From IMG/VR virus record IMGVR_UViG_3300025150_000006, positions 32,001 to 96,000 of that record: a stretch of 64,000 nt of DNA; one strand, 5' to 3'. The notes below the pieces were generated by a model that was not told where the DNA came from, did not search any database, and was given only the letters and a program-made list of their open reading frames with translations. Both the position numbers and the translations under genes were made by a program. This document shows positions 1-50,390 of this stretch, piece after piece; positions within the stretch are counted from its first letter, which is position 1; each line of letters begins with the position of its first letter. This stretch comes from a virus.

Positions 1-640
1 CCTCGATCGTCTCGTCCCAGTCATCTGAGAGACCATCCTCGGACCCGTCCGCGAAATCATCGAGGTAGTCGGGGTCACCGATGATGTCCTCACGCTTGAT
101 CAGGAACAGGCAGGTCGGGCATCCCAGCAGTCTGTGGCTCTTGCCCTCGGACCGCTTGTAGTTGGCCGGGCGAAGGAAAATGGGATTCCCCTCCTCATCC
201 GCTTTGCACTTGGGGCAAATGTACTTGCCGTCTTCGCACTCGACCTTGCTGCCCCGGTAGTGACGGTCCTTGCCGGCCCAGTAGAGGGCGGACTTCACGT
301 AGGCCTGAGCCACTCGGTCGAGGACTTCAGCAGCCGTCTTGGCAGGCCCACCTGGAACACTCACCGTCCCGGCACCGCCGGGAACGGTTGTGTTCTCCAC
401 ACTGGGTGGGATAGCGATCACATTGGTGACCCGCTGCAAGTCCTCGACCGAGTAGCGACCTGGTCCCCAGGGGAACTCCAGGTCCACTTGGCCGATGCCG
501 GGCCAAACAGCAACCACACGCCCCGCCTGGGACTCATCCGTCGCGCCGCCGGCAAGCGGAAACGCGAGGTCACCAACAGAGAACTCGCGGGCTCTCTGTT
601 GGTAGTCCAAGTAGGCGGTGGCTTGGTGCTGCTGTCCCAT
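1..640 (-). CDS. Hypothetical late protein with Zn-ribbon (CPKC...CPTC), 3' end beyond window edge
   Basis: Not in the ORF track; my translation from ATG at 640 (MGQQHQATAYLDYQQRAREFSVGD...RVAQAYVKSALYW...CPKC...CPTC...) is open to position 1; purine-rich leader upstream. Confidence 0.7.
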   Translation of the reverse strand, partial: MGQQHQATAYLDYQQRAREFSVGDLAFPLAGGATDESQAGRVVAVWPGIGQVDLEFPWGPGRYSVEDLQRVTNVIAIPPSVENTTVPGGAGTVSVPGGPAKTAAEVLDRVAQAYVKSALYWAGKDRHYRGSKVECEDGKYICPKCKADEEGNPIFLRPANYKRSEGKSHRLLGCPTCLFLIKREDIIGDPDYLDDFADGSEDGLSDDWDETIE

Positions 641-666
641 TATTGACCTTCTACCTTGGAGGCCGT

Positions 667-1380
667 TCAGACAGGCTTGGCGAGACCAGCGAGGATCTCA
701 GTCATTCGAGCGAGCTTCCCGGCAGCGGCCGAGGGCACGTCATTCGCCAGGTGCGGCAGGACATGAGCCGCCGCCCGCGTCAGAGCCGCGAGACGATCCT
801 CGTTCTCCGAACCCTCCAACAGGCGGGTCTGGAACTGGAGGACATCGAGACCGGTGGAAGCCAGCTTGGTGCCGAGTGCTTGAACACCCGCATCCTGGCT
901 GGCAGCACAACGGCCTGCGGCCTTGTTGATGTCCAGGTACAGGGCTGCCATCTTGGTGCCCAACTCCAGGGCAGCCTGGATGCCAGGCTTCGCGGTCTGG
1001 CGCTCGGAGCCATCAGGCAGCTCGCCCCCTTCCTGCTTCTCCCGCAGCTCGCGGTTCTCCTGCTGGGTGAAGTGCCCGTTCATGTAGGACTCGTCACCCT
1101 CTTGCTCCTGGGGACCCGACTTCTCCTCGCCGATCTCATCGGGGTTTTCCCCCTGATGGGCCGCGTTGAGGTCGGGCTCACCCGTGAGCGCGAGCTTCGA
1201 GATGTCGATGCCGGCTCGCTTGGCGATGTGGTCGCTGAGCAGGTCGCACTGGTAGGCGAACTTCTTGGCGATCTCAGGCTTGATGCCGTAGATGGCAGCC
1301 TGAGCGGTGATGAGGTTTGCAGCCTTGTCCAAGACAACGCCCGCATCCTGTGCAGCCTGCTTGGTGAGCTTCATGGCCAT
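667..1380 (-). CDS. Hypothetical late/virion protein (MAMKLTKQAA...), acidic central linker
   Basis: GGAGG RBS before ATG 1380; GC3-rich codons; K-x-A motifs. Confidence 0.7.
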   Translation of the reverse strand: MAMKLTKQAAQDAGVVLDKAANLITAQAAIYGIKPEIAKKFAYQCDLLSDHIAKRAGIDISKLALTGEPDLNAAHQGENPDEIGEEKSGPQEQEGDESYMNGHFTQQENRELREKQEGGELPDGSERQTAKPGIQAALELGTKMAALYLDINKAAGRCAASQDAGVQALGTKLASTGLDVLQFQTRLLEGSENEDRLAALTRAAAHVLPHLANDVPSAAAGKLARMTEILAGLAKPV

Positions 1381-1456
1381 ATGGTGATCCTCCGTGTCCG
1401 ATGCCGAGGTGGACAGCACAGGGCACACAGTGGCCCTTCGCTAATACCTCTGGCGT

Positions 1457-1468
1457 ATAGGGGAACTA
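1457..1468 (-). promoter_or_regulatory. Candidate phage late promoter TAGTnnnCCTAT
   Basis: TAGTTCCCCTAT on minus strand about 75 nt before ATG 1380; related motif upstream of five other late genes. Confidence 0.45.
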
Positions 1469-1492
1469 TGCAAAAAACTCGCAGATCCATTT

Positions 1493-4400
1493 TCAGGGAC
1501 CTTCCTCTCCTCCAGACCCCGCAAGAACCGCTTTCTCCATCTCCGAAAACTCTTCCGGGGTCATCTGCTCGATTCTTTTCCGCTCAGCCGGATCCGTGAC
1601 TCCTTCGAGAAAGTCCCTCTTGCGTTCCGCGAACGGGCGCTCGGGCCGAAGGGTCTTGTCCTCCGCCAGCTTAGGATCCGCTCCGGCTGCAATGGCCGTC
1701 ATCACTGCAACGGGGACGTCCTGCGGGTTGGGCTTCTCGTCCATCTCGGACAGAGCATCCACGATGCCCTGAGCCTGAGCCTGCTGGATCTTCTGAGAGC
1801 CGTCCTTCATGCAAACGGCAGCCTCTTCTCCGCTATCCAGGCACTTCTTCAAGAACTCGTCACAGGCTGCATTCATGTCTTCCCGGCTGGCATCTTCCAG
1901 ATCCTTGGCCACCTGGTCGTAGACCTCGGAGCTGTTGCTTGGATCCTTCTTCTGACGAGCGATGCTGGCCGCTACCCCCTGCACGGTCGTCATCGAGTTG
2001 ACACTCATGTCGAGGAGGAGAGACCTCAGGTATTTCTTCACGTCGTCGGACAGTTCACTGTTGCCCAGTGCATCTGCAAGGGACTGCCAGGGGGCATCCT
2101 TGGACATCGTGACCAGGTCCTCATCACTGAGCTTCCCCATAGCATCCCGCACAACTTCCCGGCCTTCCGCCTGGTACATCTGCGTGGGATCCTCCAGAAA
2201 CAGCATCTTGGCACTGTTCTGCTTGACCATTTGCTTGAACAGCACCTTGAGCTTGCTGTTCAGGGGCTCTCTCAGCAACTTCCCATTGGCCCACTTCACG
2301 TCGAAAGGCTCATCGTTGAGCACAGACGCAGCGTGCAGACCGTCGATGATGGAGTTCAACTCCTTGGCCTCTGGAGAGTCCGGAGTCATACCCTTGAGCT
2401 GCTGTACGGCGTTCTCAGCGATCTTGAGCCGGTGCTCCGGGGTCACCCTCCGGTAGAGCTTCATCGCCTGCTCTGCCCGAGACGCCAGAGCGTCACTGTC
2501 CATCGGTTCCGACGACAGAGGCTTCCCGCCCAAGTGACTGGGGTCGAGCAACAGGTGCTCCTGAGCCTTGGCCTGCACAAAGGCCCGTGCCACAGCTTCA
2601 GGACTTGATGTGTCCAGGTGCAGGAAAGGGTCCTTTCCCAGCTCCTGCATCATCTGAACCGTGACATTCTCATCCGCAAGCTCCTTGCGCAGGCCACGCA
2701 TCTCCACCTGGTAGGCCGCATAGAACTCAGGTGACTCCATCATCACCATCACCTGAAGGGCCATGTCCTCTGACAGGATGCCGTCCTTCTCAAGGGACGC
2801 TGCCAACGTCTCTGTCTCATTCTTAAACCGAGCCTTGTCCACCTTGGCCTGCTCGGCCTTCTGCTTCTTCTTGGCCTCCTCCGCCGCTGGGTCCGCCTTG
2901 CCATCCGCATCGGCAGTTCCCTTGGCGTAAGCTGTGGCCTGCTCCTTGGCCTTGTCATCCTCACCGAAAGTGTGGGTGACACCCTTAGGGTTCATTGCCA
3001 CCCAGACACCGGACTCTGCCTGCCAGACATCCCCCGCCTTGTGCTTGCCCTCTTCGGCAATCAGCCTACGCACCCATCGGGAACCCACCCGAGCCTCTTG
3101 TCCCTTCCACCAAGTCCCACGGGACTTGTCCCAGCCTCCCCGTGCTGTCTCGAAACTGAACTCCCGAATCGGGTACGTCACAGACTGGGCTGCAAAGTCC
3201 ATGTCCAACGAGACACGAGCGGCATGAGCGTGGGTGGTTGTCACCCCTCCGGCTGATTGGAACCACAAGGTCCCCTTCTTCCCGGTCTGGGGGTCCTTCA
3301 CCCGCCAACCCAAACCAATGTCGAGAACACGGTACTGGTGGCCCACCAAAGTCACCACAGCGTCAGACTTCTGAGCCCGCTTCTTATAGTTCTGGCTCAG
3401 GTCCTTGTCACCGTCCGCTCCGAAGCTCTCGATGTCAGGGTCATCCTCCCGCATCCTGTGTCGGCGGAGGTCATTCCGGGGAGGCTTCTTGCTTGGGTTC
3501 TTGTGATGCAGTTCCCGGACGTCCTCATCCTCTTTCTCGGCGTGGGTCTTCGTGCCCTCGACGAACCATCGGGCGGCAAGACGACGAGAAGGCTGAGTCA
3601 ATCCCTTGCAGTCCGGGCAGAGATTAGTCGTCTCAACCCGTGGACCCAAGCACCGACACTGGCTGACCGCCCCGCACTTGGGACAGATGTTCCGGTAGTG
3701 CTGCGGCTGTGACCCCTGCTTGTTGAGCCTCTCCTTGACGGTCCCGTCCCGCAGGAAGTTGTCCTCGATGCCAGGCACGAGATACTGGCTGCGCAGAGTG
3801 CTGGCCTCGTGGCCCACCTCAGCGGCGGCCTCGTCCAACGCCTGCTTGAACTCGGCCTTGAGTTTCTTCTGCCGTTCCTTCTTGTCGGTAGGAAGGGTGC
3901 CACCCTTGGAGCGGATGGCCTTGAGCTTGGTCTGCATCTCCCGGTTGGCGTGGAGCCCCCGGATGTCCTTGGCCGTGATGTCAAAGGACTTGAGGTACTC
4001 GTTGATGCCAGAGGCATCCGTCCCCTCGAACACTGAATCCGACCCCGACTTGCCCTCCAGCGCCTTCTCCAACCCGGCCACGAGTGCAGGGTCACTGGTG
4101 CTCTTGGTCTGCTTCACCCCGGACTTGCCCACGTAGGAGATGGTAGCCGTCGAGCCCTTGACGGTGACGTGCTTGGCCTGCCAACCGGTGACGCCGTAGT
4201 GACCGTCCTTGGCTGACGCCTCATTGCCAACGCGCTCGAAGGTGTCGTTCATCAAGCCGACGATCAATGCCTTGTGCCGGGTGGCCTCGTCTCCTGACTT
4301 GAGGTCCTTCTTGACCTGAGCCTGGAGCTTATGGAGCTTGCCACGGAGCTTCTCGATACGGTCAGCCTTGTCCCGGTGCCGGTTGGCGATCTGCTGATCA

Positions 4401-7400
4401 CTGTACTCGTAGACCGTCGTGGTGCCCTTGCCGTCAGCCTTGGGCACCTCCTTCTTGGACTTGAACTTCCCGGCTGCCAGCCTCCCTGAACCGGAGAGCA
4501 CGGGGAAAACCCGGTAGATCTCCTTGATGGCCTTCTTCCACTTGCCTGGTGCCTGTTCCCGCCAGACCTTCATTGGGACAAACACGTCCCCGTGAATCAC
4601 TGAGAGTAGGTAGGCCTTCTGCCTGCTCTCAGCGTCCTCACCCCGAAGATGCTTCTGGGCAGCCTGAATCATGTCCGTCAACTGCGGGTAGAACTCAACG
4701 TCATCCAGGAGATAGTTCTCGGCAAAAGTCTTGCTCTCATCGTAGAGCATCCGCTCTTGGCTGTGCCCCGGCGTCTGGATCCGTTGGGGAGGCAACCCAC
4801 CAGGGCTCCCGAGACTGGCCATGAGAGTCTGAGCAACGTGCTCCATCTCGTGACGGACTGTGTCCTCCAGTGCCTTCAAGGACTGCTTGAACTTGACCTT
4901 GATGTTGAGCGTCTTCGTCTTGGGGTCCCAACTGCCCAGGGAAGAGCCCGTTGCCCATCCCAGCACCACACGAAGGATCTTCCACTCCACGGGCAGCTTC
5001 TTGGGAAGTGCCGAGGCTGGTGACCAACCACTCAGGTCCATTGGGAACTTACGGACCAGAGGCCGTTTGCCTGCCAAGGGGGGTACACCAGGACGGAGAT
5101 AAGGCTTCAGCTCAGCCTCATCCCGTTTCGGGTATCCCATCAGGTCGGCGGCGACTGCGGCCTGCACCCATTCCGTGACGTCCGCCACCATGGCCGGGGG
5201 TGCCGTCCACAGCCCGGCGGTTTTCTGGGACGCATACCGAAGTGCCCGCACCCCTCCGTCGGAGTTGTGCTGGACTTGAGGCTTGTCCTCCCCGGCCTTC
5301 CAAGAGTACCACTGACGTCCCACACGGAACACGTAGCCTAGCACCCCACCACCGTAGTGGTCACCAGGGTCATCCTGAATCCCCTCGAACTCGGTCTGGC
5401 CCCAGGCGAACACAGCATAGGCCTCATCAGCCTTGCTGAACCACTTCTTCATCTGAGACGTGAATCGAGCGGTCTTGAGAAGTGAGACTGGGACCACGGT
5501 CTCGGTCTCCCCAGAGGCTGCCACGGCATCTGCAAACTGCTGGGTGAACAGCAGAGGCAGGGAGTTGACAGGCACGTTCTTCTCAATGCCATCCCCACCT
5601 GTGTCGAGCACGATCTTGTGCGTCACGGCCTGGATGTACCGATGAGCAACTCGGGTTGCCGCCTCCTTGTCCTGCTTGGCCTGAGCCTCATCGTAGCGGA
5701 CCTTGAACACTTGGACCTCTTTCTTGGCCCCCTGACCGGCATCGCCCTTGGGCTTCTTCCTCACGACGATGGTGGGGTCACCTTTCTCCGTCTCCCCGAA
5801 GCCTTCGATGCGACCAGGTGAATTGCGATATTTCCCGAGAAGGACTGGATCCCCAATATTGAGTTCAAACGTCTTTCCCGTCCGGGAAAAGATGCCCGTA
5901 CTCACGGAGTAGTTCTCTGGCCCAACGGATTTGATCTGAGACCCGTTGTCCACTGGGGTGATTCCGTCGCCAAAGTTCGAGGTTGTCGATCCGGTTGTCG
6001 ATCTTGTCCCCATTGATATGGTGGACGGTCTCCGTGCGCAGGAGTCTCCTACCGAGGAATTGCTCCATGACATAGCGATGTTCGAGGATTCTCCTGCCCT
6101 CGACATTGATGCTGCGGTATCCGTCTCGGTTGAGCCATCCCTCACCCTTGAGGGCTCGCTCTGCGGCCTCCGGGTCACCCTTTCGCTTCCAGAGATAGTA
6201 ATGGCGCTCGCAGTATCCCTTTGCATAGTGGTATTCGCCACAACCCTCGACGCCACACGTTCGATCGCGTCTGCGAATCCCCTCCAAGGAGCCCGTCCGC
6301 CTGAGCATGTTGTAGTGGGTGCGGCAGTAACTCCGAACTGCGGGCTTCTTTCCGCAACCATCAAAGGTGCAAGTGAGAGATGGAGGCAAGTCGCCCACCG
6401 GCTCTGGACGTTTCCCTTTTCGGTGTTGTTGGTAGTGCATTGTGCAGAAGCCCCTGGCTTCATGAGCCCGGCAGCATCCTGCCACTGAGCACTGGCGGTC
6501 GTGATGTCGTTCTGATCTTGGTCGTCCCATGACACCAATGTATCAGCACCCTGAATCTGCAACCTGTTCTTGTACTTGCCCATCAGGACCGGGTCCCCGA
6601 CGTTCAACTCGAAAATCTTGGCCGTCCTGCCTCCCTTGAGGTCATCACGGACTCGCTGGGTCAGCCGGCGGCCATCCGAGGCCAGAGCGGGATCATCCAA
6701 CAGGTGACGCCGTGCATAGTCCTGCACCTGCCGCACCGCTGCACCCTTGAGGTTGAACTCTGCCATCAGGGTCTTGGTGTCGAGCACCTTGCCCGGCTGG
6801 TTGAGCACCCGCACATACTGGTCAGAAGCAGCGTGAGACAGCCCTACCGTCACCTCACGCACACGAGCCATCTGATGAGCGTCGAGGAACGTGAGTCGCT
6901 TCCCACTCGGGAGACCCAGATCCATCAGGTCGAAAATGAAATCGACCTTCGCCTCACGATCCACCCAGTTCCCCAGGGAGTCACGGAACACCTTGTCCTT
7001 CTGAGCGATCTCCTTGATCACGTCGAGGAGCCCGAGCTTCTGCATCTCCAACAGAGCCCTCTTGCCCGTGGGCTCCTTCAAGAACGTGTTGATGAGCATC
7101 CCACTCAGATGAGCGGCAGGGATGTTGTGGAGCTTCGCCTTGTTCTTCTCGATGCTCTGCTTGACCTCGGGGGACAGCTTGAATCCGTACTTGATCAGGA
7201 ACTTGATGGCCCTGATCATCCGGCTCGGGTCGTCTGAGAACGTCTTATCCGGGCTGGACGGGCACCGCATCATCCCTTCTTGGAGGTCCTTCAGACCACA
7301 CCCAGAAAGGTCAAGAATCTCAGCCTTTTCCGGGCCTTCAGCCAGATCGTGCAGACGCCAGAGAAGGCAGTTGAACGTAAATTCACGACGACACACATCC

Positions 7401-7840
7401 TGCTCAATGGTCGCGGGTGTGACCTTGTCCGGGGTGTATCCCCCCTGGCCGTAACTCTCCGTCCGAGCATTCGCAATCTCGATGTCTTCACCACGCAGGT
7501 TGGCTTCCCCAAGCATCCAGTCACCGACGATGTGCATCAGAGCCACACCGTACTGGTTGGTCGTGATGTTCGTCTTCGCGGGGATCGCTCGGGCCACTTC
7601 CTTAGCGAACCACTCGGAGTCCTTGCCAGTAGCCACAGAGTCGATGACGACGTCGATGTCCTTCACAGGATACTTTTGCCCTGTAGGGTCCAGCACAAAG
7701 TTCCTTACTGCCCCTCCGACGACATAGACGTGCTTGCTCACACCCAGTCGCTTCGACAGGTCCGAGAGGAACTTCATCAGGGCCAGGCTGGCCTGATCGT
7801 CCATTGCAATGCGGGTTTGTTGAGCCACAGGCCACTCCAA
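1493..7840 (-). CDS. Multi-module polyprotein: CCA-type tRNA nucleotidyltransferase (~6630-7800), SH3/KOW-like module, HExxH zincin-like module, type IB topoisomerase (~3720-4470), Zn finger, helical C-terminal domain
   Basis: VYVVGGAVRN, KDIDVV, ARTESY, RREFTFN, DDPSRMIRA (class II nucleotidyltransferase); TVRHEMEH; RVGNE, GKSG, TAKDIR, VGH, RSQY (Topo IB R-K-R-H-Y pentad); CPKC..CRC..CPDC. True start may be GTG 7828 after GGAG. Confidence 0.85.
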   Translation of the reverse strand: MEWPVAQQTRIAMDDQASLALMKFLSDLSKRLGVSKHVYVVGGAVRNFVLDPTGQKYPVKDIDVVIDSVATGKDSEWFAKEVARAIPAKTNITTNQYGVALMHIVGDWMLGEANLRGEDIEIANARTESYGQGGYTPDKVTPATIEQDVCRREFTFNCLLWRLHDLAEGPEKAEILDLSGCGLKDLQEGMMRCPSSPDKTFSDDPSRMIRAIKFLIKYGFKLSPEVKQSIEKNKAKLHNIPAAHLSGMLINTFLKEPTGKRALLEMQKLGLLDVIKEIAQKDKVFRDSLGNWVDREAKVDFIFDLMDLGLPSGKRLTFLDAHQMARVREVTVGLSHAASDQYVRVLNQPGKVLDTKTLMAEFNLKGAAVRQVQDYARRHLLDDPALASDGRRLTQRVRDDLKGGRTAKIFELNVGDPVLMGKYKNRLQIQGADTLVSWDDQDQNDITTASAQWQDAAGLMKPGASAQCTTNNTEKGNVQSRWATCLHLSLAPLMVAERSPQFGVTAAPTTTCSGGRAPWRGFADAIERVASRVVANTTMQRDTASAITISGSERVTRRPQSEPSRVRDGSTETDTAASMSRAGESSNIAMSWSNSSVGDSCARRPSTISMGTRSTTGSTTSNFGDGITPVDNGSQIKSVGPENYSVSTGIFSRTGKTFELNIGDPVLLGKYRNSPGRIEGFGETEKGDPTIVVRKKPKGDAGQGAKKEVQVFKVRYDEAQAKQDKEAATRVAHRYIQAVTHKIVLDTGGDGIEKNVPVNSLPLLFTQQFADAVAASGETETVVPVSLLKTARFTSQMKKWFSKADEAYAVFAWGQTEFEGIQDDPGDHYGGGVLGYVFRVGRQWYSWKAGEDKPQVQHNSDGGVRALRYASQKTAGLWTAPPAMVADVTEWVQAAVAADLMGYPKRDEAELKPYLRPGVPPLAGKRPLVRKFPMDLSGWSPASALPKKLPVEWKILRVVLGWATGSSLGSWDPKTKTLNIKVKFKQSLKALEDTVRHEMEHVAQTLMASLGSPGGLPPQRIQTPGHSQERMLYDESKTFAENYLLDDVEFYPQLTDMIQAAQKHLRGEDAESRQKAYLLSVIHGDVFVPMKVWREQAPGKWKKAIKEIYRVFPVLSGSGRLAAGKFKSKKEVPKADGKGTTTVYEYSDQQIANRHRDKADRIEKLRGKLHKLQAQVKKDLKSGDEATRHKALIVGLMNDTFERVGNEASAKDGHYGVTGWQAKHVTVKGSTATISYVGKSGVKQTKSTSDPALVAGLEKALEGKSGSDSVFEGTDASGINEYLKSFDITAKDIRGLHANREMQTKLKAIRSKGGTLPTDKKERQKKLKAEFKQALDEAAAEVGHEASTLRSQYLVPGIEDNFLRDGTVKERLNKQGSQPQHYRNICPKCGAVSQCRCLGPRVETTNLCPDCKGLTQPSRRLAARWFVEGTKTHAEKEDEDVRELHHKNPSKKPPRNDLRRHRMREDDPDIESFGADGDKDLSQNYKKRAQKSDAVVTLVGHQYRVLDIGLGWRVKDPQTGKKGTLWFQSAGGVTTTHAHAARVSLDMDFAAQSVTYPIREFSFETARGGWDKSRGTWWKGQEARVGSRWVRRLIAEEGKHKAGDVWQAESGVWVAMNPKGVTHTFGEDDKAKEQATAYAKGTADADGKADPAAEEAKKKQKAEQAKVDKARFKNETETLAASLEKDGILSEDMALQVMVMMESPEFYAAYQVEMRGLRKELADENVTVQMMQELGKDPFLHLDTSSPEAVARAFVQAKAQEHLLLDPSHLGGKPLSSEPMDSDALASRAEQAMKLYRRVTPEHRLKIAENAVQQLKGMTPDSPEAKELNSIIDGLHAASVLNDEPFDVKWANGKLLREPLNSKLKVLFKQMVKQNSAKMLFLEDPTQMYQAEGREVVRDAMGKLSDEDLVTMSKDAPWQSLADALGNSELSDDVKKYLRSLLLDMSVNSMTTVQGVAASIARQKKDPSNSSEVYDQVAKDLEDASREDMNAACDEFLKKCLDSGEEAAVCMKDGSQKIQQAQAQGIVDALSEMDEKPNPQDVPVAVMTAIAAGADPKLAEDKTLRPERPFAERKRDFLEGVTDPAERKRIEQMTPEEFSEMEKAVLAGSGGEEGP
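5822..6565 (-). mobile_element. 744-bp in-frame HNH insertion carrying a recoded duplicate of 21 host codons
   Basis: RTAKIFELNVGDPVLMGKYKN (6566-6628) repeated as RTGKTFELNIGDPVLLGKYRN (5822-5884) exactly 744 nt away, with AT-richer codons in the second copy. Confidence 0.8.
5865..6530 (-). CDS. HNH homing endonuclease with three N-terminal CxxxxC...CxxHY Zn-finger repeats, nested out of frame in the polyprotein gene
   Basis: EHRYVMEQFLGR...VHHINGDKIDNRIDNLELW; repeats CSVAGC..CTMHY, CTFDGC..CRTHY, CGVEGC..CERHY. Confidence 0.9.
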   Translation of the reverse strand: MGRPRSERHHDRQCSVAGCCRAHEARGFCTMHYQQHRKGKRPEPVGDLPPSLTCTFDGCGKKPAVRSYCRTHYNMLRRTGSLEGIRRRDRTCGVEGCGEYHYAKGYCERHYYLWKRKGDPEAAERALKGEGWLNRDGYRSINVEGRRILEHRYVMEQFLGRRLLRTETVHHINGDKIDNRIDNLELWRRNHPSGQRVSDQIRWARELLREYGHLFPDGKDV

Positions 7841-7856
7841 TGAGGTCCCCTTCTGT

Positions 7857-8699
7857 TCAAGGGGACCTCATAGGCGAACAACCGCCTAGAACCTGAAAAG
7901 CACCCTCATCCTCCGAAACATCTTGCAGGCGGGATTCCGCCACACCCGTCCAGTGAGGATCACGGTCCACACCCCGGAAAGACATCCCCTCAAGAATTGC
8001 AGCTTCACCTGTAGTGCCAGACCCACAAAAAGGGTCTACGACCACCCCTCCAGGAGGGCACACCACCCGAACCAGTTGCCGCATCCAACCCACCGTTTTC
8101 TCGGCGGGATGGTCGTGCTTGTGTTTTGAGACTGGGAACCCCTCAAACAGGTGAGACAACCGAGGTTCCCCCACCTGCATGTACCCCACCCCCCATTGTT
8201 CGTGGTTAGCCTTCGAGGATTGCTGTGTCCCCGGCTTACGAGCCAGCACCCACAGTTCTGTTTCCTGTACAAGCTGGGTAGACAATCCACCATCGACCAA
8301 AGGGGATTTGGGCCTACGGCGATGCAGACGACGGATCAGGATGTCAATGGTAGGGAGACCTGCACGTTCCAGGCCCTCCATCAGCCAATGGAGGCTGGAC
8401 TGGAAACCCCAAAACACCCCATAGCCACCCGGCTTCAACACCCGGCTACATTGTTCAAGTACAGGATAAACCTGTTTCTCAAAACCAGGACGCATCGCCA
8501 AATGAGTCCGATGATGGGTTTGAAAATTGGCTCGTGTCCGGTTAGTGGGGGAATCCCAACCGAGGTAACGTGAATCCCCGCCCCCGAAAGGAACCATCAT
8601 ATTCCGACCAGAGGGCGGATCGGTAACAATGGCATCAGCACTGTTGTCTGGCCACGAACCCATCACATCAGCCGCATCCCCCAGACTCACATCATACAT
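7857..8699 (-). CDS. Beta-class N4-C/N6-A DNA methyltransferase
   Basis: IVTDPPS (motif IV-like), HPAEK, VVVDPFCGSGTT (motif I); start overlaps the upstream stop (TGATG). Confidence 0.8.
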   Translation of the reverse strand: MYDVSLGDAADVMGSWPDNSADAIVTDPPSGRNMMVPFGGGDSRYLGWDSPTNRTRANFQTHHRTHLAMRPGFEKQVYPVLEQCSRVLKPGGYGVFWGFQSSLHWLMEGLERAGLPTIDILIRRLHRRRPKSPLVDGGLSTQLVQETELWVLARKPGTQQSSKANHEQWGVGYMQVGEPRLSHLFEGFPVSKHKHDHPAEKTVGWMRQLVRVVCPPGGVVVDPFCGSGTTGEAAILEGMSFRGVDRDPHWTGVAESRLQDVSEDEGAFQVLGGCSPMRSP

Positions 8700-10393
8700 C
8701 AGAACCGACCCTCGCCCTCAACCTTGGGCTTCGTGTACTTGAGGCCCAGGTACTCAGCAATCTTCGCCGTGAAGTCCGTGTTCTCCGCGAGACCATCACC
8801 AACCCTGGTGTAGAGGCCTCGAAGGATCTCGTTGAACGTCGCGTCCTGGAACGTACCGAAGTCTCGTGCCAGCTTCTCGCGAATCGTGATGGGGTCGAGG
8901 TTGAGATGTTCGAGGATGGTGTCGATGTCGAGGGACCCCTTCTGGTAGAGGTTCATCAGAGCATCGAAGGTCTCGGTGTTGTCACGGAAGGAGAGCCTGG
9001 TGAACGAGAGGTGCGGGACGATGACCTGAAGGACACCATCCTCATCCTCCTCAACGAACCCCATCCGCAGACACATCGGCCGGAAGAACTGGTCCTCGAC
9101 CAGTTCTTGCAGAGTCTCCCGCATCAGCATAAACCTGGTGTTGATGACCTCCAGGTTGATGCGGTCTCCCGAGTAGCTGGACTCACCCGACAACAGACTC
9201 TCGGTCACGCCCAGGCCGGCATACATATGCCGGTCGGTCATGTCGAAGACCCAACTCCAGTCAGGCAGCCGCTGGTCCGCACCCATCTCCTCCCAGGTGA
9301 CCTGGAAGTTGGTGATGATCGAGAAGTCCGGGTCTTGCAGAGCAAGGTCAACCTGCTCTCGCAAGTCCTCCGTCTGCTCAGCGTTCATGTCCTCGGCGTA
9401 GATCAACCGGTAGGGCGTCATGTGCCGGGAAGCGATCGAAGTCAGTGATTGTCGGACCTTGTCGCGGAACACCAGTGTTCGGAGGCACCGTTCGAGGATG
9501 CTCTTGCCCCGTGGCTCGTACTGGGACTTCTTCCGGGCCATGTTGTAGTAGAAGGAACCGGCCTCGGGGTCCGTGTTGAGAGGGACGTTCATCCCCTCTG
9601 AGATAGCGGCCACCACATCTTGTGGCATCGAGTTCACGATGCGGATGGCGTTGGGGTCACCGGACTGGGCTCGATTGAAGATAGCCTTCGTCTTCGAGTC
9701 CGGGATCAGCTCGACCAGCTTCTCCTCGGTGAAGGGGAAGCTCTCGATGTGAATCTGCTCCGGGGGCAGGGTCCGCACCGCAGACCAACCCTTGTAGTTC
9801 TTCTTGAGCCAAGCGACGGCCCGCTCCTTGGCGTCCTCCCGAACGACCTTCCTCTCAACGACCTCGCCCTCCTTGGTGATCTCCCGAACGACCTCGTACT
9901 CGACCGTGTCGGGCATGTCGTCGGAGGTGTCCTCACAGAAGATATGGGCCTCACCAAGCAGGTTCCACTCGTGACTGATCTCCATCAGCCGGTGAAGGAG
10001 ACCCACCCGCTTCGCCCAGTTCTCACAGAACCGGAGAGCCGCAGCCGCCAACTTCTCGTTCTTCGCTGCGGGTTTACGAAGCCGTACCTTGGACAAGGGA
10101 AGCTCGTCGAGCAGGTCGATGGCCTGCCCCACGAAGGGGTCGTGGTCGTAGAAGAAGCGGAAATAGTTGCGCTTCTCGTCATCGGACTGGGGCAGCTCCA
10201 GGAAGTCCGTGGACAGCTCGGGGGAGTAGAAGTTGCCTCCGGCACCCATGGAGGTGTTGCCACCTCCGCCTGCCAGGGAAGCCGCCCGCATCGAAGAAGT
10301 GAGGATCTTGGTGGGCTTTCCCACGGTCACACCCGCACGCTCCGCAATCTTGCGGACCACAATGGTGCTGTCAGGGTCATTCGTCCTAGCCAT
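8699..10393 (-). CDS. Probable portal protein
   Basis: 564 aa, close downstream of terminase; portal-like segments (FYDHDPFVGQAID, LLGEAHIF, PRGKSILER, GLGVTESLLSGESSYS). Confidence 0.6.
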   Translation of the reverse strand: MARTNDPDSTIVVRKIAERAGVTVGKPTKILTSSMRAASLAGGGGNTSMGAGGNFYSPELSTDFLELPQSDDEKRNYFRFFYDHDPFVGQAIDLLDELPLSKVRLRKPAAKNEKLAAAALRFCENWAKRVGLLHRLMEISHEWNLLGEAHIFCEDTSDDMPDTVEYEVVREITKEGEVVERKVVREDAKERAVAWLKKNYKGWSAVRTLPPEQIHIESFPFTEEKLVELIPDSKTKAIFNRAQSGDPNAIRIVNSMPQDVVAAISEGMNVPLNTDPEAGSFYYNMARKKSQYEPRGKSILERCLRTLVFRDKVRQSLTSIASRHMTPYRLIYAEDMNAEQTEDLREQVDLALQDPDFSIITNFQVTWEEMGADQRLPDWSWVFDMTDRHMYAGLGVTESLLSGESSYSGDRINLEVINTRFMLMRETLQELVEDQFFRPMCLRMGFVEEDEDGVLQVIVPHLSFTRLSFRDNTETFDALMNLYQKGSLDIDTILEHLNLDPITIREKLARDFGTFQDATFNEILRGLYTRVGDGLAENTDFTAKIAEYLGLKYTKPKVEGEGRF

Positions 10394-11195: not shown

Positions 11196-11198
11196 GAA

Positions 11199-15545: not shown

Positions 15546-15558
15546 TAGGTGGACCCTC

Positions 15559-16239: not shown

Positions 16240-16250
16240 GAGCGGGCCTC

Positions 16251-16793: not shown

Positions 16794-16802
16794 CGGATCC
16801 CC

Positions 16803-19064
16803 CTAGAAGTTCCAGCCATCACCGAACAGTACGTCCCCGATGTTTTCCGTGACCGAGGGGTCATCCAACTCGACGTTCATCGAGTCACCGAGGTTGAACT
16901 CTCCGGGGTTGAACAGTGACGCCGTGATCTCGTGATCTGAAGCGTTGGCCACCTGGAGCATCTTCCGCTTGAAATCCGCCGCATCCTTCGGGATCTGGTG
17001 GAGAAGCTCCTTGCCGTACTTCGTGCAGACACCATTGGCGTTGGCCAACGTGCACCCAGCACATCGGTCCATCGCCTTGACGAACCGAATCTGGTTTGCC
17101 CGGTGCAACGACGCGGACTTCTCGCAACCCGTGGACCCCGTCTTCGACGCATAGGCCTCGGCGTCAACGTAGAGGTGACCCGAAAGCCCCTCGTGCTCGT
17201 CACGAAGCATCGCGATGAGACCCTCACCCGCTGCCCGCAGGGGGCTAGCAAACCGGATGGTCATCAGAGCCGTGAGGTCATCCCCCGCCATCCCCTCGGA
17301 CATCTTCTGGCGGACCCAGCGGGCCATGCTCTGGAACTCGGCGACCCGGATTCCACTGGCAGCCGATGCCTGACGCATCGCCTCCTGATCGGCTGCCAGC
17401 TTCTTAGGCCTGGGACCCTGCTGGAGAGCCCGCTTGATGACGGGGCCACCGTACTCCTGAGCTGCCGCCGACCGCTTCATCGCGACCTTGCGAGTGCCCG
17501 AGGAGTTGGCGTAGGCCGTGGCCAGCTTGAGCATCTCCTCAGGAGTGCCCTGCTCTAGGGCCAGACGTGCCTCCTTCTCAGAAAGCTGCCCGGCATCTAG
17601 CATCGCTACAACGTGGGCACGAGCCTTGTTACCCTGAACCCTGGACAGCTCCGCCTGAGCGAACGCGGTCCACACTTTTCGAACGGCCTGCCGATGAGCG
17701 GTGACTCGGGTGCCATCCCCATCGTACTGGGCCACCTTGGGCATCTGGTTCGCCCGAGCCAGAGATTCGGCAGCCTTGCGGATGGCCTCCGGGCTCGCCT
17801 TGGAGTGGCTGAGCTTGAGCACGTCAGCCTGGGAGATGAGCCCAGCCGCTCCTGCCTTCTGTACGGTCACCAGGGCCGCCTTACGGGCCCTGGCCTGGTC
17901 ATCCCTGGCAACGACCTGCCGAACTTGGCGGGGGGCCTCAGCAGCCATCCTCCTGGCCTCTGAGAGGGTCACCCGGTCAGCCGGGCGGACATCCACCGGC
18001 TTCACCGAAGCAGTGTGCCCCACCTCACGAGGTCCAGTCAGGAACGCGAGCTGGAGGGTCTTCTTCGGGTCGCCACCGACGCTGGCCACCTTGTAGCCAG
18101 CCGCTGTCAAGTTCGCCGTGTAGATCTTGAGGGCCTTCTTCCAGGGCACCTCGGAGACCATCTCCATCCCGAGCTTGGCAGCAACCGCCGGATCCTCGGT
18201 GAGTACATAGCGAGCGGTACGAGCGACCTTCCGAAGCTCCTTGGCCCACTTGCCATTCCGCAGACCTGGAAAGGCACTGGCCCGAACAAACACGTTGCCC
18301 GCGACTCCGTGATCCGCTGCGATGATGCCTACTGCCTTGGATGCCATCTTCTTGTCGAGGTTGGCGTGCAGGTAGTTGGCGATCTCCCCCATCGTCCGAC
18401 CATAGTGGGACATCCGCACGGCCTTCTTGAGATGCCAGGAGGCATCCCCAGCATTCTTCCCTACACCAGGCGTCGCGGGACGACCGGACTCGATGGAGTC
18501 CTCGTAGTTCGCGATCTCCTTGTCCCGGTTCGGGACGAGAGCGAGACCATCCGTTCTCCGGTTCACACCCCAGGCCTCCTCCAGCTCGATGGAGGAGTTC
18601 AACGGGGGCTTGTCCGGGCGCAACTCCTTGGGGAGTCGGGCAGGGTCCTGCTCTTGAGTGGGGTCGAGCCAGCTCAGGTCCGCCAGACTGGCAGCGTGCT
18701 GCTCAGCAGCAGTCATGTGCAGGCCACCCTCGTTGGGGGACAGCATATCCCCCAGGTCGAAAACACCCTCGTCCTCGTCTACGAAGGACAGATCCCCAAA
18801 GTCATCGGCCTCCTTGGAGTCACCCTCGCCGCTCATGAGCCCATCGGGAAGAGCGGACATCCCCTTGGTCTGAGCAGGGGTGATGGGGCCTGACATACCA
18901 CCCAGGTCCCCGTGGTTCCGAAGTCCCTCACCCAAGGTCTGGTCGTGATGGAAACCATCAAGGCCATAGTTGGACCCTTCAGTCCAGGTGAAGTCATCCG
19001 ACGGAAGGTCTGACCCCGCCATGAACGCATCCTCCCAAGACGCCTGCTTCTTCTTGGTGCTCAT
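16803..19064 (-). CDS. Large hypothetical late protein (acidic N-terminus, many K/R-x-A motifs, C-terminal Cys cluster)
   Basis: 753-aa ORF, ATGA-coupled; CEK..CAGC..C near the C-terminus. Confidence 0.7.
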   Translation of the reverse strand: MSTKKKQASWEDAFMAGSDLPSDDFTWTEGSNYGLDGFHHDQTLGEGLRNHGDLGGMSGPITPAQTKGMSALPDGLMSGEGDSKEADDFGDLSFVDEDEGVFDLGDMLSPNEGGLHMTAAEQHAASLADLSWLDPTQEQDPARLPKELRPDKPPLNSSIELEEAWGVNRRTDGLALVPNRDKEIANYEDSIESGRPATPGVGKNAGDASWHLKKAVRMSHYGRTMGEIANYLHANLDKKMASKAVGIIAADHGVAGNVFVRASAFPGLRNGKWAKELRKVARTARYVLTEDPAVAAKLGMEMVSEVPWKKALKIYTANLTAAGYKVASVGGDPKKTLQLAFLTGPREVGHTASVKPVDVRPADRVTLSEARRMAAEAPRQVRQVVARDDQARARKAALVTVQKAGAAGLISQADVLKLSHSKASPEAIRKAAESLARANQMPKVAQYDGDGTRVTAHRQAVRKVWTAFAQAELSRVQGNKARAHVVAMLDAGQLSEKEARLALEQGTPEEMLKLATAYANSSGTRKVAMKRSAAAQEYGGPVIKRALQQGPRPKKLAADQEAMRQASAASGIRVAEFQSMARWVRQKMSEGMAGDDLTALMTIRFASPLRAAGEGLIAMLRDEHEGLSGHLYVDAEAYASKTGSTGCEKSASLHRANQIRFVKAMDRCAGCTLANANGVCTKYGKELLHQIPKDAADFKRKMLQVANASDHEITASLFNPGEFNLGDSMNVELDDPSVTENIGDVLFGDGWNF

Positions 19065-19648
19065 GAAGGGCCTCCCTCGTCCATTTCAGCTTCTTCACCC
19101 TCGGCCCAATCCTCGGGGTCTTCCTTGATCTCATCCACGTCATCCATGATCTGCTGGACCTCTGAACGGGCGCGGGGGTCTCCACCGGAGTCGTTCACGT
19201 CGGGATGCCAGTGGATGGCCTTGATCTCATCATCGAGTGTATCTGCAATGGAGGACAGAGCCTCATCACAGTTCGAGAGCTGCTTACGGATGTCCTTCAC
19301 GGGCATCACATAGCCCTTGCCCCCGAGATTCCCATCAGGAGAGATCCTCTGACTCTTGATCTTCGTGAACGTCGTGCGGGCGGTCTGGATGTGACCAAGC
19401 GCCATCAGCACACTGCGGAGGGTCCGAGCAAGGGGCTCAAGATTCTTGCCGTCGAACTTGTAGTCGGGGTCGATGTTCCGCTCGGAAGAACCAGGTGGGT
19501 TCCAGCCCCACTCGTGGTGGTCCCCGCCCCGATCCTTAATGAACCGGACCTCGCCAGCCGTCTTCGACCGTGTCGGCCGCAAGGCCGCCCGCACGAAACG
19601 TGCAGTGACTCGCTCAACGGCTTGTTTCATCTGGCGGTTATCGGACAC
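19061..19648 (-). CDS. Hypothetical late protein
   Basis: GGAGGAG RBS; N-terminal KQAVERVTARF..SKTA; CCTAT motif upstream. Confidence 0.7.
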   Translation of the reverse strand: MSDNRQMKQAVERVTARFVRAALRPTRSKTAGEVRFIKDRGGDHHEWGWNPPGSSERNIDPDYKFDGKNLEPLARTLRSVLMALGHIQTARTTFTKIKSQRISPDGNLGGKGYVMPVKDIRKQLSNCDEALSSIADTLDDEIKAIHWHPDVNDSGGDPRARSEVQQIMDDVDEIKEDPEDWAEGEEAEMDEGGPS

Positions 19649-19693
19649 GAGGGGTTCTCCTCCGGCTTCTACTGGTTCGCTGGTATAGGCTCA

Positions 19694-20551
19694 CTAGCGC
19701 CCAACCATTGAGGGCTCCAGGTTGAAGTCCTTCTTCATCAGGTCCCAGTTAACCGAGAACCAACGTCCGGTCCATTCGATGTACCGATGCTGGAGCAGGT
19801 ACAACACACGAGCAGCGACCGCGATGGGCAGCAAGGTGAACGTCCCAAATCCGAAGATATTGAGCACCCCACCAAAGGCTGAACCCGGCAGAGAAGCCAG
19901 GAAATCAGGGAAAGACATAGCCCCCGTGACGGCATCGGTGAGACCCTTGAAATCCCACTCGAACTCCGTGACGTTCATCCACACCCAGATGTAGATGCCC
20001 ACCATCAACACCCCCATGATGTGAGGAGCGTGCTGACGTAGCATCTCACCGAAGGAACCCAAGTGGCTGATCCCGGCGTCCAGCACCTTCTTGAGCTTGG
20101 GGGACTTGGCCATCAGGCCACTGATCAGGTCATTGAACGACTTGAGTTTGCCCTTCTCCAGCGTGTAAATGCGCAGGGGCCACGAGTCGAACATCTTGTG
20201 GATGAGTCCTCGCAGAGCCTTCTTCGCCTTCGCGGCCAGGTCCTTGATCGCCCTCGGAATGTCCAGAAGGCTCTTGATGCCGATCAGGTGCTTGAACTTC
20301 TCCCAGAGTTGGGGTGCTTTCTTGAACACCTCTACGAGCTGCTTGAGCTTGCGAATGAGTCCACCGAAAGCCACCCGCCCCTGATACTGAGGCAAGTAGA
20401 AGTGCTCTGCAAAGGCAGCCACCACGTCAGGCGTCAATCCCGACGTGGCCAGGCGTGTGCTTGAGCCGGCACACGCGGCGGTGGCTGCCATACGGACCAG
20501 GTAGCGGTCCGCCAGCCGGTCAATTGCCTGGCGAGCCTGGCCCATCATCAC
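19694..20551 (-). CDS. Hypothetical membrane-associated protein
   Basis: Hydrophobic segments IMGVLMVGIYIWVWM and FGGVLNIFGFGTFTLLPIAVAA; N-terminal RLADRY. Confidence 0.65.
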   Translation of the reverse strand: MMMGQARQAIDRLADRYLVRMAATAACAGSSTRLATSGLTPDVVAAFAEHFYLPQYQGRVAFGGLIRKLKQLVEVFKKAPQLWEKFKHLIGIKSLLDIPRAIKDLAAKAKKALRGLIHKMFDSWPLRIYTLEKGKLKSFNDLISGLMAKSPKLKKVLDAGISHLGSFGEMLRQHAPHIMGVLMVGIYIWVWMNVTEFEWDFKGLTDAVTGAMSFPDFLASLPGSAFGGVLNIFGFGTFTLLPIAVAARVLYLLQHRYIEWTGRWFSVNWDLMKKDFNLEPSMVGR

Positions 20552-21186: not shown

Positions 21187-21194
21187 GGGTCACC

Positions 21195-22454: not shown

Positions 22455-22457
22455 CGG

Positions 22458-23749: not shown

Positions 23750-23752
23750 CGA

Positions 23753-25723
23753 CTACAGCCCCAGGGCTGTGTTAATCGCCCTACGATCAAAAGAAGTCAC
23801 CCCGGACTCGAACTGCATTACCCGGCCATCATAGTAACCAAAGAGGATCTCCTTGCCTCGACTCTTCTTGGTCACATAGAGACGCCTGCCCTTCCATACC
23901 GAGGATGCCGTGAATCCAGCATCCTGAACAGCCTCCAGACCCTCCTGGAGAGAAAGAGAAGCAGCCGTCCGCTGAGCACGCAGCTCGGCGAGACGAGACG
24001 AAGTTGAAGCAATCCTCAGCTTCAGCACTGCCACGCCCATGCTGCCGTGAGCCAGTGAGACACCATAATCCCTCTTGAACAGGATCCACTTCGCCTGTCC
24101 CTGAAGGACCGGAGCACCATCCACGATGGGGAAGAGCTGCTTGCTGTACACGTTATACTTCTCGGAGTACGTCGTGCGTCCCACCATGAACTCTTGCTCA
24201 CCTGCCTCATAGGTAGACTTGTAGGTGATGAACAGACGCTTGCCCTTGGTCAGGCCGTCGTACTGACTGTCCGACATGAGTGTGGCCAGATGAGCATTGT
24301 TCTCCTCAGGAGAAGCGAACAGCCTCATCTTCGGGACCTCAGAGCCCTGATAGGCCATGACGAAGTAGGCATTGTACTTGTAGGCGGACCACTTGCCCGT
24401 GTCAGAAGTGAGCTTGGCTACCACCCCATGGTAGTTGAACTTGGCAAGGGCCTGGATGAGCACCTTGCGAGTCTTCGCGGCCACTTCCTTGGCTTGATCG
24501 TTGGTGGCACCCGGAGACAGAAGACCTTCGATGACGAAACCTTCTGCACGGTAAGGGACACCATCAGGTGTGATGGTGTTTTCCCTTTCATGTCCCCAGG
24601 CCTCAATCGGACCGGCACCAAGTCCTGACCTCTTCAGGGTGGCTGCCATCAACTTGTAGATGGCAGCCGCTGCCCCCGCAAAGTCCTTGTTTGCCGACCG
24701 ACGCTTGGCCTCCCGGTCCATGATTGGGGCCAAGATCCTATGAGCTGCCTGTGCTTGTGCCTGTGCTGCTCGAATCACTTCCTGAGTCGTCCCCTCAGTT
24801 TCAACTGAGAGCCACTTGGACCCAGTGGTTGCCTTCAGGAACTCCTCACTCCACTTGGGCTGGAGATAGTAGCTGTAGCTGGCCTTGAGCGAATCCTGGG
24901 AGGGACCCCACTGATGGATCTCAATCTGGATCTCGGTTGGCCCACCGCCGATGCTGGGGAGCGTTGGGACCTCAATCTCGGCCTTGCCTGAAAGCCCACC
25001 CGTATGATTGGGAGTCACCTTGAACTTGCTCACCCGACCACCGAGAGCTTTTGCAGCGGCGTCCGACCAGGCACGCAGTGCCGGAGTGACCTGGCTATCA
25101 TCACCGGCGGTCTTGCCCTTGAACTGATCCATCTCGGCCTGGACCTTGGCCATCCTGGCCAACAATGCTGTTCGGTTCACGGTTGCTTCCTTGTTCTTGT
25201 ACTTCGAGCGGTCCACCCCTCCGGGCCAACGCTGCTGAACATACTTCTTGTTGTACTCGCTCTTCTCATCCAGCTCACCAGCGAGCCTCTCATCACCACA
25301 GGCGCAGGTGGCGTGGCGCTGAAGGAGCGGGATGATGAACTGGCGGGACTCGGGAACCTCCGAGGCGACCCGTAGAAGGGCTTGCTTGATCGTGCCCGCT
25401 TGCTTGTGCTGTGCCCAAAACAAGTCGGACTCTTCTTTTGCCTTCGCTATGACCGCTTGGGCCTTTTGAGCACCAAGCGGCGTGAGCTGCATGTTGAGGG
25501 GGTAGTCCATGTCGATGACCACCCCGCCCCTACCTGCATTGATATAGCCCTTCTTCAAGAGGGCTATTGCTAGACGCGGTGGGATCCCCGAATCCCGGAT
25601 GGTCCATTCATTGTGGTCTCTCGGCGGGTCCACTTTGAACTTCTTGACGTCAGCCTTGTACAACCGAACAAGGGCTTCATCGATCGTTCGTACAGGACTG
25701 GCCGCTTGCTTGATCGTGCTCAT
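23753..25723 (-). CDS. Modular hypothetical polyprotein-like late protein
   Basis: 656 aa; modules bordered by KQA/RLA/KEA/KTA/RIA/RTA. Confidence 0.7.
   Translation of the reverse strand: MSTIKQAASPVRTIDEALVRLYKADVKKFKVDPPRDHNEWTIRDSGIPPRLAIALLKKGYINAGRGGVVIDMDYPLNMQLTPLGAQKAQAVIAKAKEESDLFWAQHKQAGTIKQALLRVASEVPESRQFIIPLLQRHATCACGDERLAGELDEKSEYNKKYVQQRWPGGVDRSKYKNKEATVNRTALLARMAKVQAEMDQFKGKTAGDDSQVTPALRAWSDAAAKALGGRVSKFKVTPNHTGGLSGKAEIEVPTLPSIGGGPTEIQIEIHQWGPSQDSLKASYSYYLQPKWSEEFLKATTGSKWLSVETEGTTQEVIRAAQAQAQAAHRILAPIMDREAKRRSANKDFAGAAAAIYKLMAATLKRSGLGAGPIEAWGHERENTITPDGVPYRAEGFVIEGLLSPGATNDQAKEVAAKTRKVLIQALAKFNYHGVVAKLTSDTGKWSAYKYNAYFVMAYQGSEVPKMRLFASPEENNAHLATLMSDSQYDGLTKGKRLFITYKSTYEAGEQEFMVGRTTYSEKYNVYSKQLFPIVDGAPVLQGQAKWILFKRDYGVSLAHGSMGVAVLKLRIASTSSRLAELRAQRTAASLSLQEGLEAVQDAGFTASSVWKGRRLYVTKKSRGKEILFGYYDGRVMQFESGVTSFDRRAINTALGL
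25380..25719. repeat. 16-bp direct repeat GCTTGCTTGATCGTGC (25380-25395 and 25704-25719) encoding TIKQA twice
   Basis: Exact match seen in the sequence, 324 nt (108 codons) apart. Confidence 0.8.
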
Positions 25724-25729
25724 TGGATC

Positions 25730-26038
25730 TCACCAGATTCCGGTCGTTTCGAAGCCACGCTTCTCAAACCACTGACCAAGGGCCATCAAGCCGTCGTGAT
25801 CCTTGGACCACAGCTCCAGGCCATCAAAACTGGAAGCGACACCGAGGTCCGCAACACGCGGAACACCCTTCATCGCGACCTTGCCGTCACGGAACGAGTA
25901 GAGCAGACTCGCCAAGTTACGGATTTCCTGTGCACCGTACAGCACACGAATCCGATACTCCGGGAACGAGACCTCACGGAGCCACCTTTCGGCGACCCGT
26001 TTCGTCATCAGCACCTGGTTTTTGGACTCATTCTTCAT
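25730..26038 (-). CDS. Small hypothetical late protein
   Basis: 102 aa; N-terminal KRVAERW; CCTAT motif upstream. Confidence 0.65.
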   Translation of the reverse strand: MKNESKNQVLMTKRVAERWLREVSFPEYRIRVLYGAQEIRNLASLLYSFRDGKVAMKGVPRVADLGVASSFDGLELWSKDHDGLMALGQWFEKRGFETTGIW

Positions 26039-31093: not shown

Positions 31094-31128
31094 TCTATCT
31101 CCCCTGAAAGCCCCTCACCCTACCCGTC

Positions 31129-50289: not shown

Positions 50290-50390
50290 GCTGTTGTCCC
50301 ACTCAGATCCGCTCGGATGCAACGCTCCGAGAGGTTTTGATTCCAAGAGACAGACCTGCCCCCTTTCTCCCGCCCTATCAACTCCCTACC

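Follow-up and report, generated by a model that had tools for sequence, protein, structure and literature searches.

Recurrent peptide motifs in head-region proteins of a phage related to Bacillus phage G: a possible recognition code for head assembly

Results

The head-gene region and its motif-carrying proteins

The stretch of DNA analysed here (the window, 64,000 nucleotides) comprises bases 32001-96000 of the 105,230-base virus record IMGVR_UViG_3300025150_000006, which has a G+C content (GC) of 60%. Nearly all genes of the window lie on the minus strand. In the direction of transcription the region from 26 to 16 kb encodes several proteins without assigned function; then follow the genes for the large terminase (11199-15545), for the portal protein (8699-10393, minus strand; phrog_16240, PF06074), which provides the context of a head module, for a DNA methylase, and for a polyvalent protein of 2115 amino acids (1493-7840, minus strand; PF01743, PF01028). 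Past this polyprotein the order is a 253-amino-acid protein, a 288-amino-acid protein, a prohead protease homologue of 502 amino acids, a 212-amino-acid protein and the major capsid protein of 308 amino acids. Two peptide motifs recur in the proteins of this region and are the subject of this study: a long motif, in its strict form R-[VL]-[AGT]-x-R-[YWF] (the R-motif), and a short motif, [KR]-x-A-[AGS].

The gene of the prohead protease homologue (genome positions 30266-31774, before the window start) is situated two genes downstream of the polyprotein within the head cluster. Residues 106-259 of the protein match phrog_18299, a family of head maturation proteases (E = 3.8e-13); this PHROG family was the only match, as neither a Pfam family nor a relative in the PDB was found by sequence search. 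A prohead protease encoded elsewhere in the genome, for which the initial annotation had suggested searching, is represented by this homologue.

All copies of the R-motif listed in the initial annotation were confirmed; they lie on the minus strand, in frame with long open reading frames. The strict copies are RVAHRY (5636-5653), RLAARW (3566-3583), RVGSRW (3074-3091), RVTARF (19595-19612), RLADRY (20501-20518), RVAERW (25982-25999) and RLAARY (55365-55382), and there is the variant RVAQAY (299-316). These seven in-frame strict matches in 20,170 amino acids compare with 0.24 expected, none of 5000 shuffles reached seven, and the best other position-permuted pattern gave three matches. The complete record contains ten copies in frame. 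When a scoring matrix was built solely from the loci of other phages, it found eight sites here at a threshold of at least 14 bits, with 0.23 expected. The codons of the copies differ at synonymous sites, which points to selection at the level of the peptide or protein, and a DNA-level element was rejected for this reason. Three further six-frame matches, RLATRW (18086-18103), RLGARY (39757-39774) and RVTGRY (55730-55747), lie outside the called frames; being few, they are probably due to chance.

Small proteins carry three of the copies at residues 12-14, and the polyprotein contains three more. In the 195-amino-acid protein (19061-19648, minus strand) RVTARF occupies residues 13-18, and KTAGEV at residues 29-34 marks the place where the conserved body begins. 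Among its relatives, the N-terminal copy is present at the same place in genome G002 (RLARRY) and absent from G001, a relative of 143 kb; in G003 it has decayed and a new copy, RLALRW, stands at the C-terminus after an acidic linker. The 285-amino-acid protein (19694-20551, minus strand) carries RLADRY(L) at residue 12, and its G003 orthologue keeps the motif. The C-terminal half of this protein contains two long hydrophobic stretches that look membrane-spanning, and from its sequence it may be a membrane-inserting ejection protein. In the 102-amino-acid protein (25730-26038, minus strand) the copy is RVAERW(L) at residue 14, and the G003 orthologue has RVAARW. Farther away, the 475-amino-acid protein (54186-55613, minus strand) carries RLAARY(L) near its N-terminus together with RRLASRRKQAG.

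The variant RVAQAY belongs to the 288-amino-acid protein, whose gene starts 226 bases before the window, so that only its 3' part (2-640, minus strand) is included. It encodes a small beta-barrel, the sequence KTAAEV-LD-RVAQAY and a zinc ribbon; orthologues have the canonical forms RVASRY, RIADRW or RVASKY. The AlphaFold 2 (AF2) model places a small domain on either side of the motif, which forms a helix of low confidence; the model is poor, with a predicted local distance difference test score (pLDDT) of 51.5.

A copy in the polyprotein (5636-5662) and one in a 470-amino-acid protein beyond the window (genome positions 100749-100778) share ten identical residues, T-RVAHRYIQA, in different codons. 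This could reflect a recent transfer of the motif or strong convergence.

The polyprotein and its module borders

The 2115-amino-acid protein consists of a nucleotidyltransferase of the CCA/polyA type, a segment interrupted by an HNH gene, a module with the sequence HEMEH, a topoisomerase IB and a conserved tail. The Topoisom_I domain spans residues 1153-1348 (Pfam); HEMEH is located at residues 997-1001, and a Pfam search of the protein matched no peptidase family. Comparison with relatives by blocks of homology revealed a mosaic with modules in a different order in different phages.

The borders of these blocks cluster at the long motif. RVAHRY(I) at residue 730 stands just after a small beta domain, with KEAA five residues upstream, and homology blocks end at residues 722-735. 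RLAARW(F) at residue 1420 opens a conserved charged segment. RVGSRW(V) at residue 1584 is the start of the conserved C-terminal module, and five blocks start exactly there. At these three strict copies 25 of the 112 block ends are found, with 4.4 expected (P = 0.002). Three degenerate copies behave in the same way. RALRY-ASQ-KTAG (residues 865-876; 5213-5248, minus strand) lies before the HExxH module, and five blocks end at residues 868-869. RLAAGKF (residues 1120-1126; 4463-4483, minus strand) directly precedes the topoisomerase IB; eight blocks start at residues 1117-1123, and the corresponding sequence of relatives is R[IV][AS][SA]K[FY] with QKKKEVPKAD after it. A decayed copy, NYK-KRAQKS (residues 1485-1493; 3362-3388, minus strand), corresponds to DLSxNYK-RVAxRW in relatives, and many blocks end at residues 1489-1491. 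Strict and degenerate copies together account for 50 of the 112 block ends against 8.5 expected.

The initial annotation had further placed a TRIA sequence (before MDD) at the border preceding the CCA domain. TRIA forms residues 10-13 of the longest possible open reading frame, for which TTG at 7840 and ATG at 7804 are the candidate start codons. A terminator-like hairpin follows the methylase stop codon and precedes the polyprotein start (GAGGTCCCC, 11 bases, GGGGACCTC; window positions approximately 7833-7868, minus strand).

An open reading frame for an HNH endonuclease is contained in another frame of the polyprotein gene (5822-6628, minus strand). This insertion is flanked by duplicate copies of FELN[VI]GDPVL[ML]GKY[KR]N (residues 411-426 and 658-673), and between them the polyprotein frame is a filler rich in Ser and Thr. 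A further match, RVASRV at residue 528, was rejected since it falls into the read-through of this insertion.

In its sequence the protein agrees with the polyvalent proteins described for phages and conjugative elements, a class for which delivery by the capsid and processing were predicted (Iyer et al. 2017; PMC5512222). As in that class, a portal-adjacent polypeptide joins a nucleotidyltransferase, a topoisomerase IB and an HExxH module, and the modules are shuffled among relatives. Processing by embedded zincin peptidases was proposed there and no shared junction motif was described (PMC5512222), whereas the joints of the present protein carry the R-V-A-x-R-Y-L and basic-x-Ala element. Judging from the sequence, these joints are more likely read by a separate prohead protease than by an embedded zincin.

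The long motif in related phages

The gene of the major capsid protein (phrog_2522) occupies genome positions 26905-27831 and precedes the window by about 4.2-5.1 kb. A PDB sequence search returned gp27 of Bacillus phage G (6wkk) as the sole relative of the protein, with 40% identity; identity to the capsid protein of Tunturiibacter phage Tunturi_5 is 47%. Capsid proteins that are 83-100% identical are encoded on 579 IMG/VR contigs, which reach 618 kb in length and range from 42 to 68% GC. The capsid protein is unusually frozen, since adjoining head proteins are only 45-67% identical (loci L014-L093). Given the length of these contigs and a close relative of 111 kb whose completeness is rated at 25%, the present record is probably a fragment of a far larger genome, namely that of a giant phage G-like phage. 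A megablast search with 25 kb against cultured phages gave no match, most motif carriers match no Pfam or PHROGs family, and G001 (48% GC) has only the head module in common with the present genome.

The motif was described in this clade from 80 loci surrounding capsid genes whose products are 83-100% identical; together these loci encode 787 unique proteins and cover 42-68% GC. In these proteins 35 matches to R[VLI]A.[RK][YWF][LIVMF] were counted where 0.58 would be expected. Conservation hardly extends beyond the consensus [AS]-[AVI]-x-R-V-A-x-R-Y-L. Position 3 is Ala in 52 of 65 non-redundant copies and otherwise Thr, Gly or Ser, and position 4 is preferentially Ser (15) or Ala (14), with Arg, Asp, Glu and His also accepted. 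Eighteen copies are C-terminal (at most 20 residues from the end), seven N-terminal and 40 internal. The copies in the loci all lie within 10 kb of the capsid gene, 47 of 48 on the strand of the head genes.

The carriers are diverse. When the motif was masked, single-linkage BLAST clustering of 57 carriers yielded 17 groups, 14 of them singletons; the largest, with 36 proteins, is chained together via shuffled polyproteins. G001 carries R[VI]AS[RK]Y at one N-terminus, at two C-termini and in linkers. Residues flanking the motif are enriched in disorder-prone types (P = 0.001). In a family characterized by a 105-amino-acid domain the helical-hairpin domain is conserved, the Gly-rich linker is variable and the R-motif is kept, in some members before an added domain. 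The AF2 model of such a carrier has a disordered linker and then a low-confidence helix at the motif; its helical-hairpin fold gave no informative PDB match. The distribution of the R-motif tracks the sub-clade with the near-invariant capsid protein and not host GC (42-68%).

The short motif in head-region proteins

The short motif was counted as [KR].A[AGS], and expectations were derived from shuffles within blocks of 20 residues, which preserve local composition; 11 permuted orders of the pattern served as controls. The late block contains 52 sites (28.8 expected, z 4.5), the region from 53 to 73 kb 41 (18.7 expected, z 5.3) and the part upstream of the window 25 (15.3 expected, z 2.7), in contrast to 17 in the replication block (20.2 expected, z -0.7). 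All 11 controls stayed below 2.9 in absolute z. The initial annotation had judged both motifs by eye to be much rarer in the replication block (26-53 kb), and the counts bear this out: the roughly twofold excess of the short motif is confined to non-replication proteins, and the block contains no in-frame strict R-motif, nor do the recognised replication enzymes. Both motifs are likewise enriched over shuffles, so that the Ala/Arg-rich background named there as the possible undoing of the idea does not explain them. The shuffle and permuted-pattern counts led us to reject chance and base composition as the origin of either motif.

Several proteins are especially dense in the short motif. Among the head-locus proteins these are the conserved 753-amino-acid protein (16803-19064, minus strand) with 15 sites where 4.1 are expected, one of them KQAS at residue 6, and the Ala-rich 253-amino-acid protein between polyprotein and protease (667-1428, minus strand) with eight against 1.2, a scaffold-like candidate. 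The 916-amino-acid protein, of which the 3' part (62271-64000, minus strand) lies in the window and which runs past its end, has 17 against 4.2, and the prohead protease homologue is dense in sites as well. The 656-amino-acid protein (23753-25723, minus strand) has seven sites, one of them KQAA at residue 5, with an expectation of 3.1, and the 475-amino-acid R-motif carrier has six against 1.8.

In an unbiased scan of residue pairs K.A, R.A and AS ranked highest. RTAS is 10-fold and KTAS 8-fold over expectation, and RTAS, KTAS, KKAS and KQAS are all 7-10 times more frequent than expected. The first 30 residues of proteins hold 63 sites against 26.6 expected (2.4-fold). At the position corresponding to P1' of a protease site Ser is 2.3-fold enriched, and at +4 and +5 there are weak preferences for basic and aromatic residues.

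The excess extends to other phages. In G001 it is confined to the head side (z 4.5; remainder z 0.65), and the capsid loci repeat this asymmetry. In the head region of phage G (30% GC) and of Tunturi_5 the short motif ranks first of 12 patterns, with z 3.2 and 3.9, respectively. As the long motif is in turn found throughout the clade, the term phage-specific, which the initial annotation had applied to the code, does not hold in the sense of a code unique to this phage.

In low-GC relatives about 20 small, otherwise unrelated proteins share a 22-residue N-terminal leader with three [KR]xA triplets, MRR[TS]ASE[VI][IL]RxLExR[VI]ARLE (G001 = L006-L013, L064, L066, L080, L085), which occurs once at a C-terminus and once between two domains. 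A six-frame search with a hidden Markov model did not find this leader in the present genome.

Beyond the window end the record encodes a GroEL-like chaperonin (Cpn60; genome positions 102753-104225) and a 1026-amino-acid protein (97064-100144). The latter has an N-terminal cysteine protease domain of the Peptidase_C39-like type and could be a second candidate processing enzyme. Inteins of the LAGLIDADG type interrupt the large terminase, the ribonucleotide reductase (46309-50346) and a SNF2-type helicase (57186-62261).

Discussion

A two-tier recognition code as the favoured reading

We consider that the two motifs may constitute a two-tier recognition code for head assembly, in which the long motif would be an address or docking tag and the short motif a cut site of the prohead protease; we put the probability of this reading at roughly 0.5. 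The first tier would be the peptide R-V-A-x-R-Y-L, preceded by small or aliphatic residues and placed on flexible ends and on the module joints of polyvalent proteins. A conserved part of the prohead, either the protease, the scaffold or the inner face of the capsid, would bind this tag, and the docked cargo would be co-assembled into the capsid. At the second tier, [KR]-x-A-[S/A/G] would be cut by the prohead protease with Ala at P1 and Ser, Ala or Gly at P1'. R-V-A, with which the R-motif begins, is itself a basic-x-Ala site, and the free position of the R-motif favours Ser and Ala as does P1' of the short motif; one reader may thus recognise both. The reading is built on the distribution, conservation and context of the motifs, from which we infer binding, packaging and cleavage.

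Several observations weigh against this reading. The initial annotation had seen both motifs at module borders. For the long motif this holds, as homology-block ends cluster there, but the short motif is present in the polyprotein at the level expected from composition (seven sites against 7.2); five of the seven coincide with R-motif or module-border positions. Pairing of terminal R-motifs with a neighbouring cut site proved weak when examined: a [KR]xA[AGS] site parts the motif from the body in only eight of 27 cases (C-terminal six of 19, N-terminal two of eight). With pairing this inconsistent, the sequences do not support removal of the tag after loading. In the 102-amino-acid protein the motif runs directly into the conserved body without a linker. 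The helix predicted at the motif is of low confidence (pLDDT 36-62, AF2), and with six of seven consecutive residues conserved, an extended peptide would fit as well. In 89 kb around the head genes of Tunturi_5, the closest cultured relative, no R-motif was found, and a relaxed pattern gave one match against 0.87 expected. The conserved KLAAS of the capsid protein is not kept in phage G, so that processing of the capsid protein is unsupported; the 6wkk chain, which lacks this site, aligns from its residue 4. Finally, the z-scores of 14 and 17.5 for the short motif in the capsid loci are inflated by shared ancestry. Searches of the literature yielded no cleavage data for phage G relatives.

The main rival to the two-tier reading is that there is one code and no separate address. 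All signals would then be cut sites that trim termini and part the polyprotein modules, R-V-A-x-R-Y-L being either the substrate that the prohead protease prefers or a pseudo-substrate that it leaves uncut, and loading would depend on other features. The overlap just described speaks for it, with Ala predominating at position 3 of the R-motif and Ser or Ala at position 4 as at P1' of general sites, and so do the weak preferences of general sites at +4 and +5; the conserved run of residues is what a peptide lying extended in a protease groove would look like. We nevertheless regard this explanation as unlikely. Trimming of 7-15 C-terminal residues would have no evident purpose unless the peptide had an earlier role, and the move from the N- to the C-terminus in the 195-amino-acid family fits a docking tag better. 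Position 4 also takes Arg, Asp, Glu and His, and seven specified residues exceed the two to three of known prohead-protease sites such as those of T4 gp21 and phiKZ gp175.

A partner of the R-motif unrelated to capsid loading, for instance a phage chaperone, a conserved host factor met after injection, DNA, or the carrier itself in oligomers, appears quite unlikely to us. Such a partner would account for carriers encoded outside the core head cluster, namely the 475-amino-acid protein at 54-55.6 kb and the 470-amino-acid protein beyond the window, and the phage does encode a Cpn60. Yet the copies are clustered within the head locus and in polyproteins encoded next to the portal, close to the capsid gene and on the strand of the head genes, they follow the sub-clade with the near-invariant capsid and not host GC, and the recognised replication enzymes are devoid of them. 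The excess of the short motif might also be a by-product, arising either in structural proteins with Ala-rich helices or coiled coils or from a choice of AT-rich codons at gene starts. It is concentrated in a few Ala-rich proteins (753, 253 and 916 amino acids); starts rich in Lys, Gln, Thr and Ser, such as MSTKKKQAS and MSTIKQAAS, would fit relaxed mRNA structure in a genome of 60% GC; and the orthologue of the 753-amino-acid protein in G001 lacks these N-terminal triplets. This explanation seems very unlikely, however, because the 20-residue-block shuffles keep local composition and the 11 permuted orders show no excess. Moreover, the excess is repeated in genomes of 30%, 42-52%, 59% and 60-68% GC, and non-head proteins of the same genomes lack it.

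Within the two-tier reading, a more specific and only tentative proposal is that the R-motif is a portable capsid-loading tag which docks on the inner face of the near-invariant capsid protein or on a protease-scaffold, so that arbitrary enzymes could be loaded and modules swapped freely. The cargo would then include topoisomerase IB, a CCA-adding enzyme and membrane-active proteins, and one docking surface for many cargoes would explain capsid identities of 83-100% across genomes of 42-68% GC. The way in which giant phages select the enzymes carried in their capsids is, to our knowledge, understood mainly for T4 and the phiKZ group. If the two-tier code is real, a seven-residue tag and a basic-x-Ala signature would make the injected proteome of phage G-like megaphages predictable from metagenomes, the shuffling of cargo polyproteins would be explained, and a candidate tag for putting foreign proteins into large capsids would be available. 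Because the short motif is found in the cultured phages G and Tunturi_5, the part concerning protease specificity is open to test now.

Comparison with known systems

The closest known system appears to be the capsid-targeting sequence (CTS) of T4 together with the prohead protease gp21, and the basic-x-Ala/R-motif code may be regarded, by analogy, as a variant of such a targeting-and-cleavage system. In T4 the CTS is carried by the internal proteins IPI-III and Alt and is removed by gp21 (reviewed in PMC3012670 and PMC9026906). In both cases a short peptide is common to otherwise unrelated proteins encoded near the head genes, a prohead protease gene lies in the head cluster, and the tag overlaps the protease's own cut-site signature, which is putative here. 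The N-terminal copies lie 4-14 residues from the start, near the length of the T4 CTS. The two differ in that there is no sequence similarity, with basic-x-Ala here and Leu/Ile-x-Glu in T4, and in that the T4 tag is confined to the extreme N-terminus, whereas only seven of the 65 copies are N-terminal here, 18 being C-terminal and 40 internal.

The proteases of other giant phages, gp175 of phiKZ and gp245 of SPN3US, recognise Ser/Ala/Gly-x-Glu (PMC10052503, PMC7411985). These codes resemble the short motif in being tripeptides of low information that are dense in head, ejection and scaffold-like proteins. The assemblin of herpesviruses cuts (Val/Leu/Ile)-x-Ala-Ser between Ala and Ser. With Ala at P1 and Ser at P1', assemblin would be closest to the putative site in its chemistry. 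Unlike in all of these, P3 would be Lys or Arg, a specificity that here derives from enrichment alone.

Encapsulins and bacterial microcompartments use short peptides, terminal or between domains and on flexible linkers, that dock cargo inside the shell and can stand at either terminus; encapsulin shells have the HK97 fold in common with phage capsids. The cargo-loading peptides of encapsulins have a Gly/Ser/Leu-rich consensus, in contrast to [AS][AVI]xRVAxRYL, and the shell in the present case would be the phage capsid protein (phrog_2522, 6wkk). The likeness consists in the arrangement of a tag on a flexible linker, and the comparison thus concerns a possible mechanism of docking and not membership in the encapsulin class.

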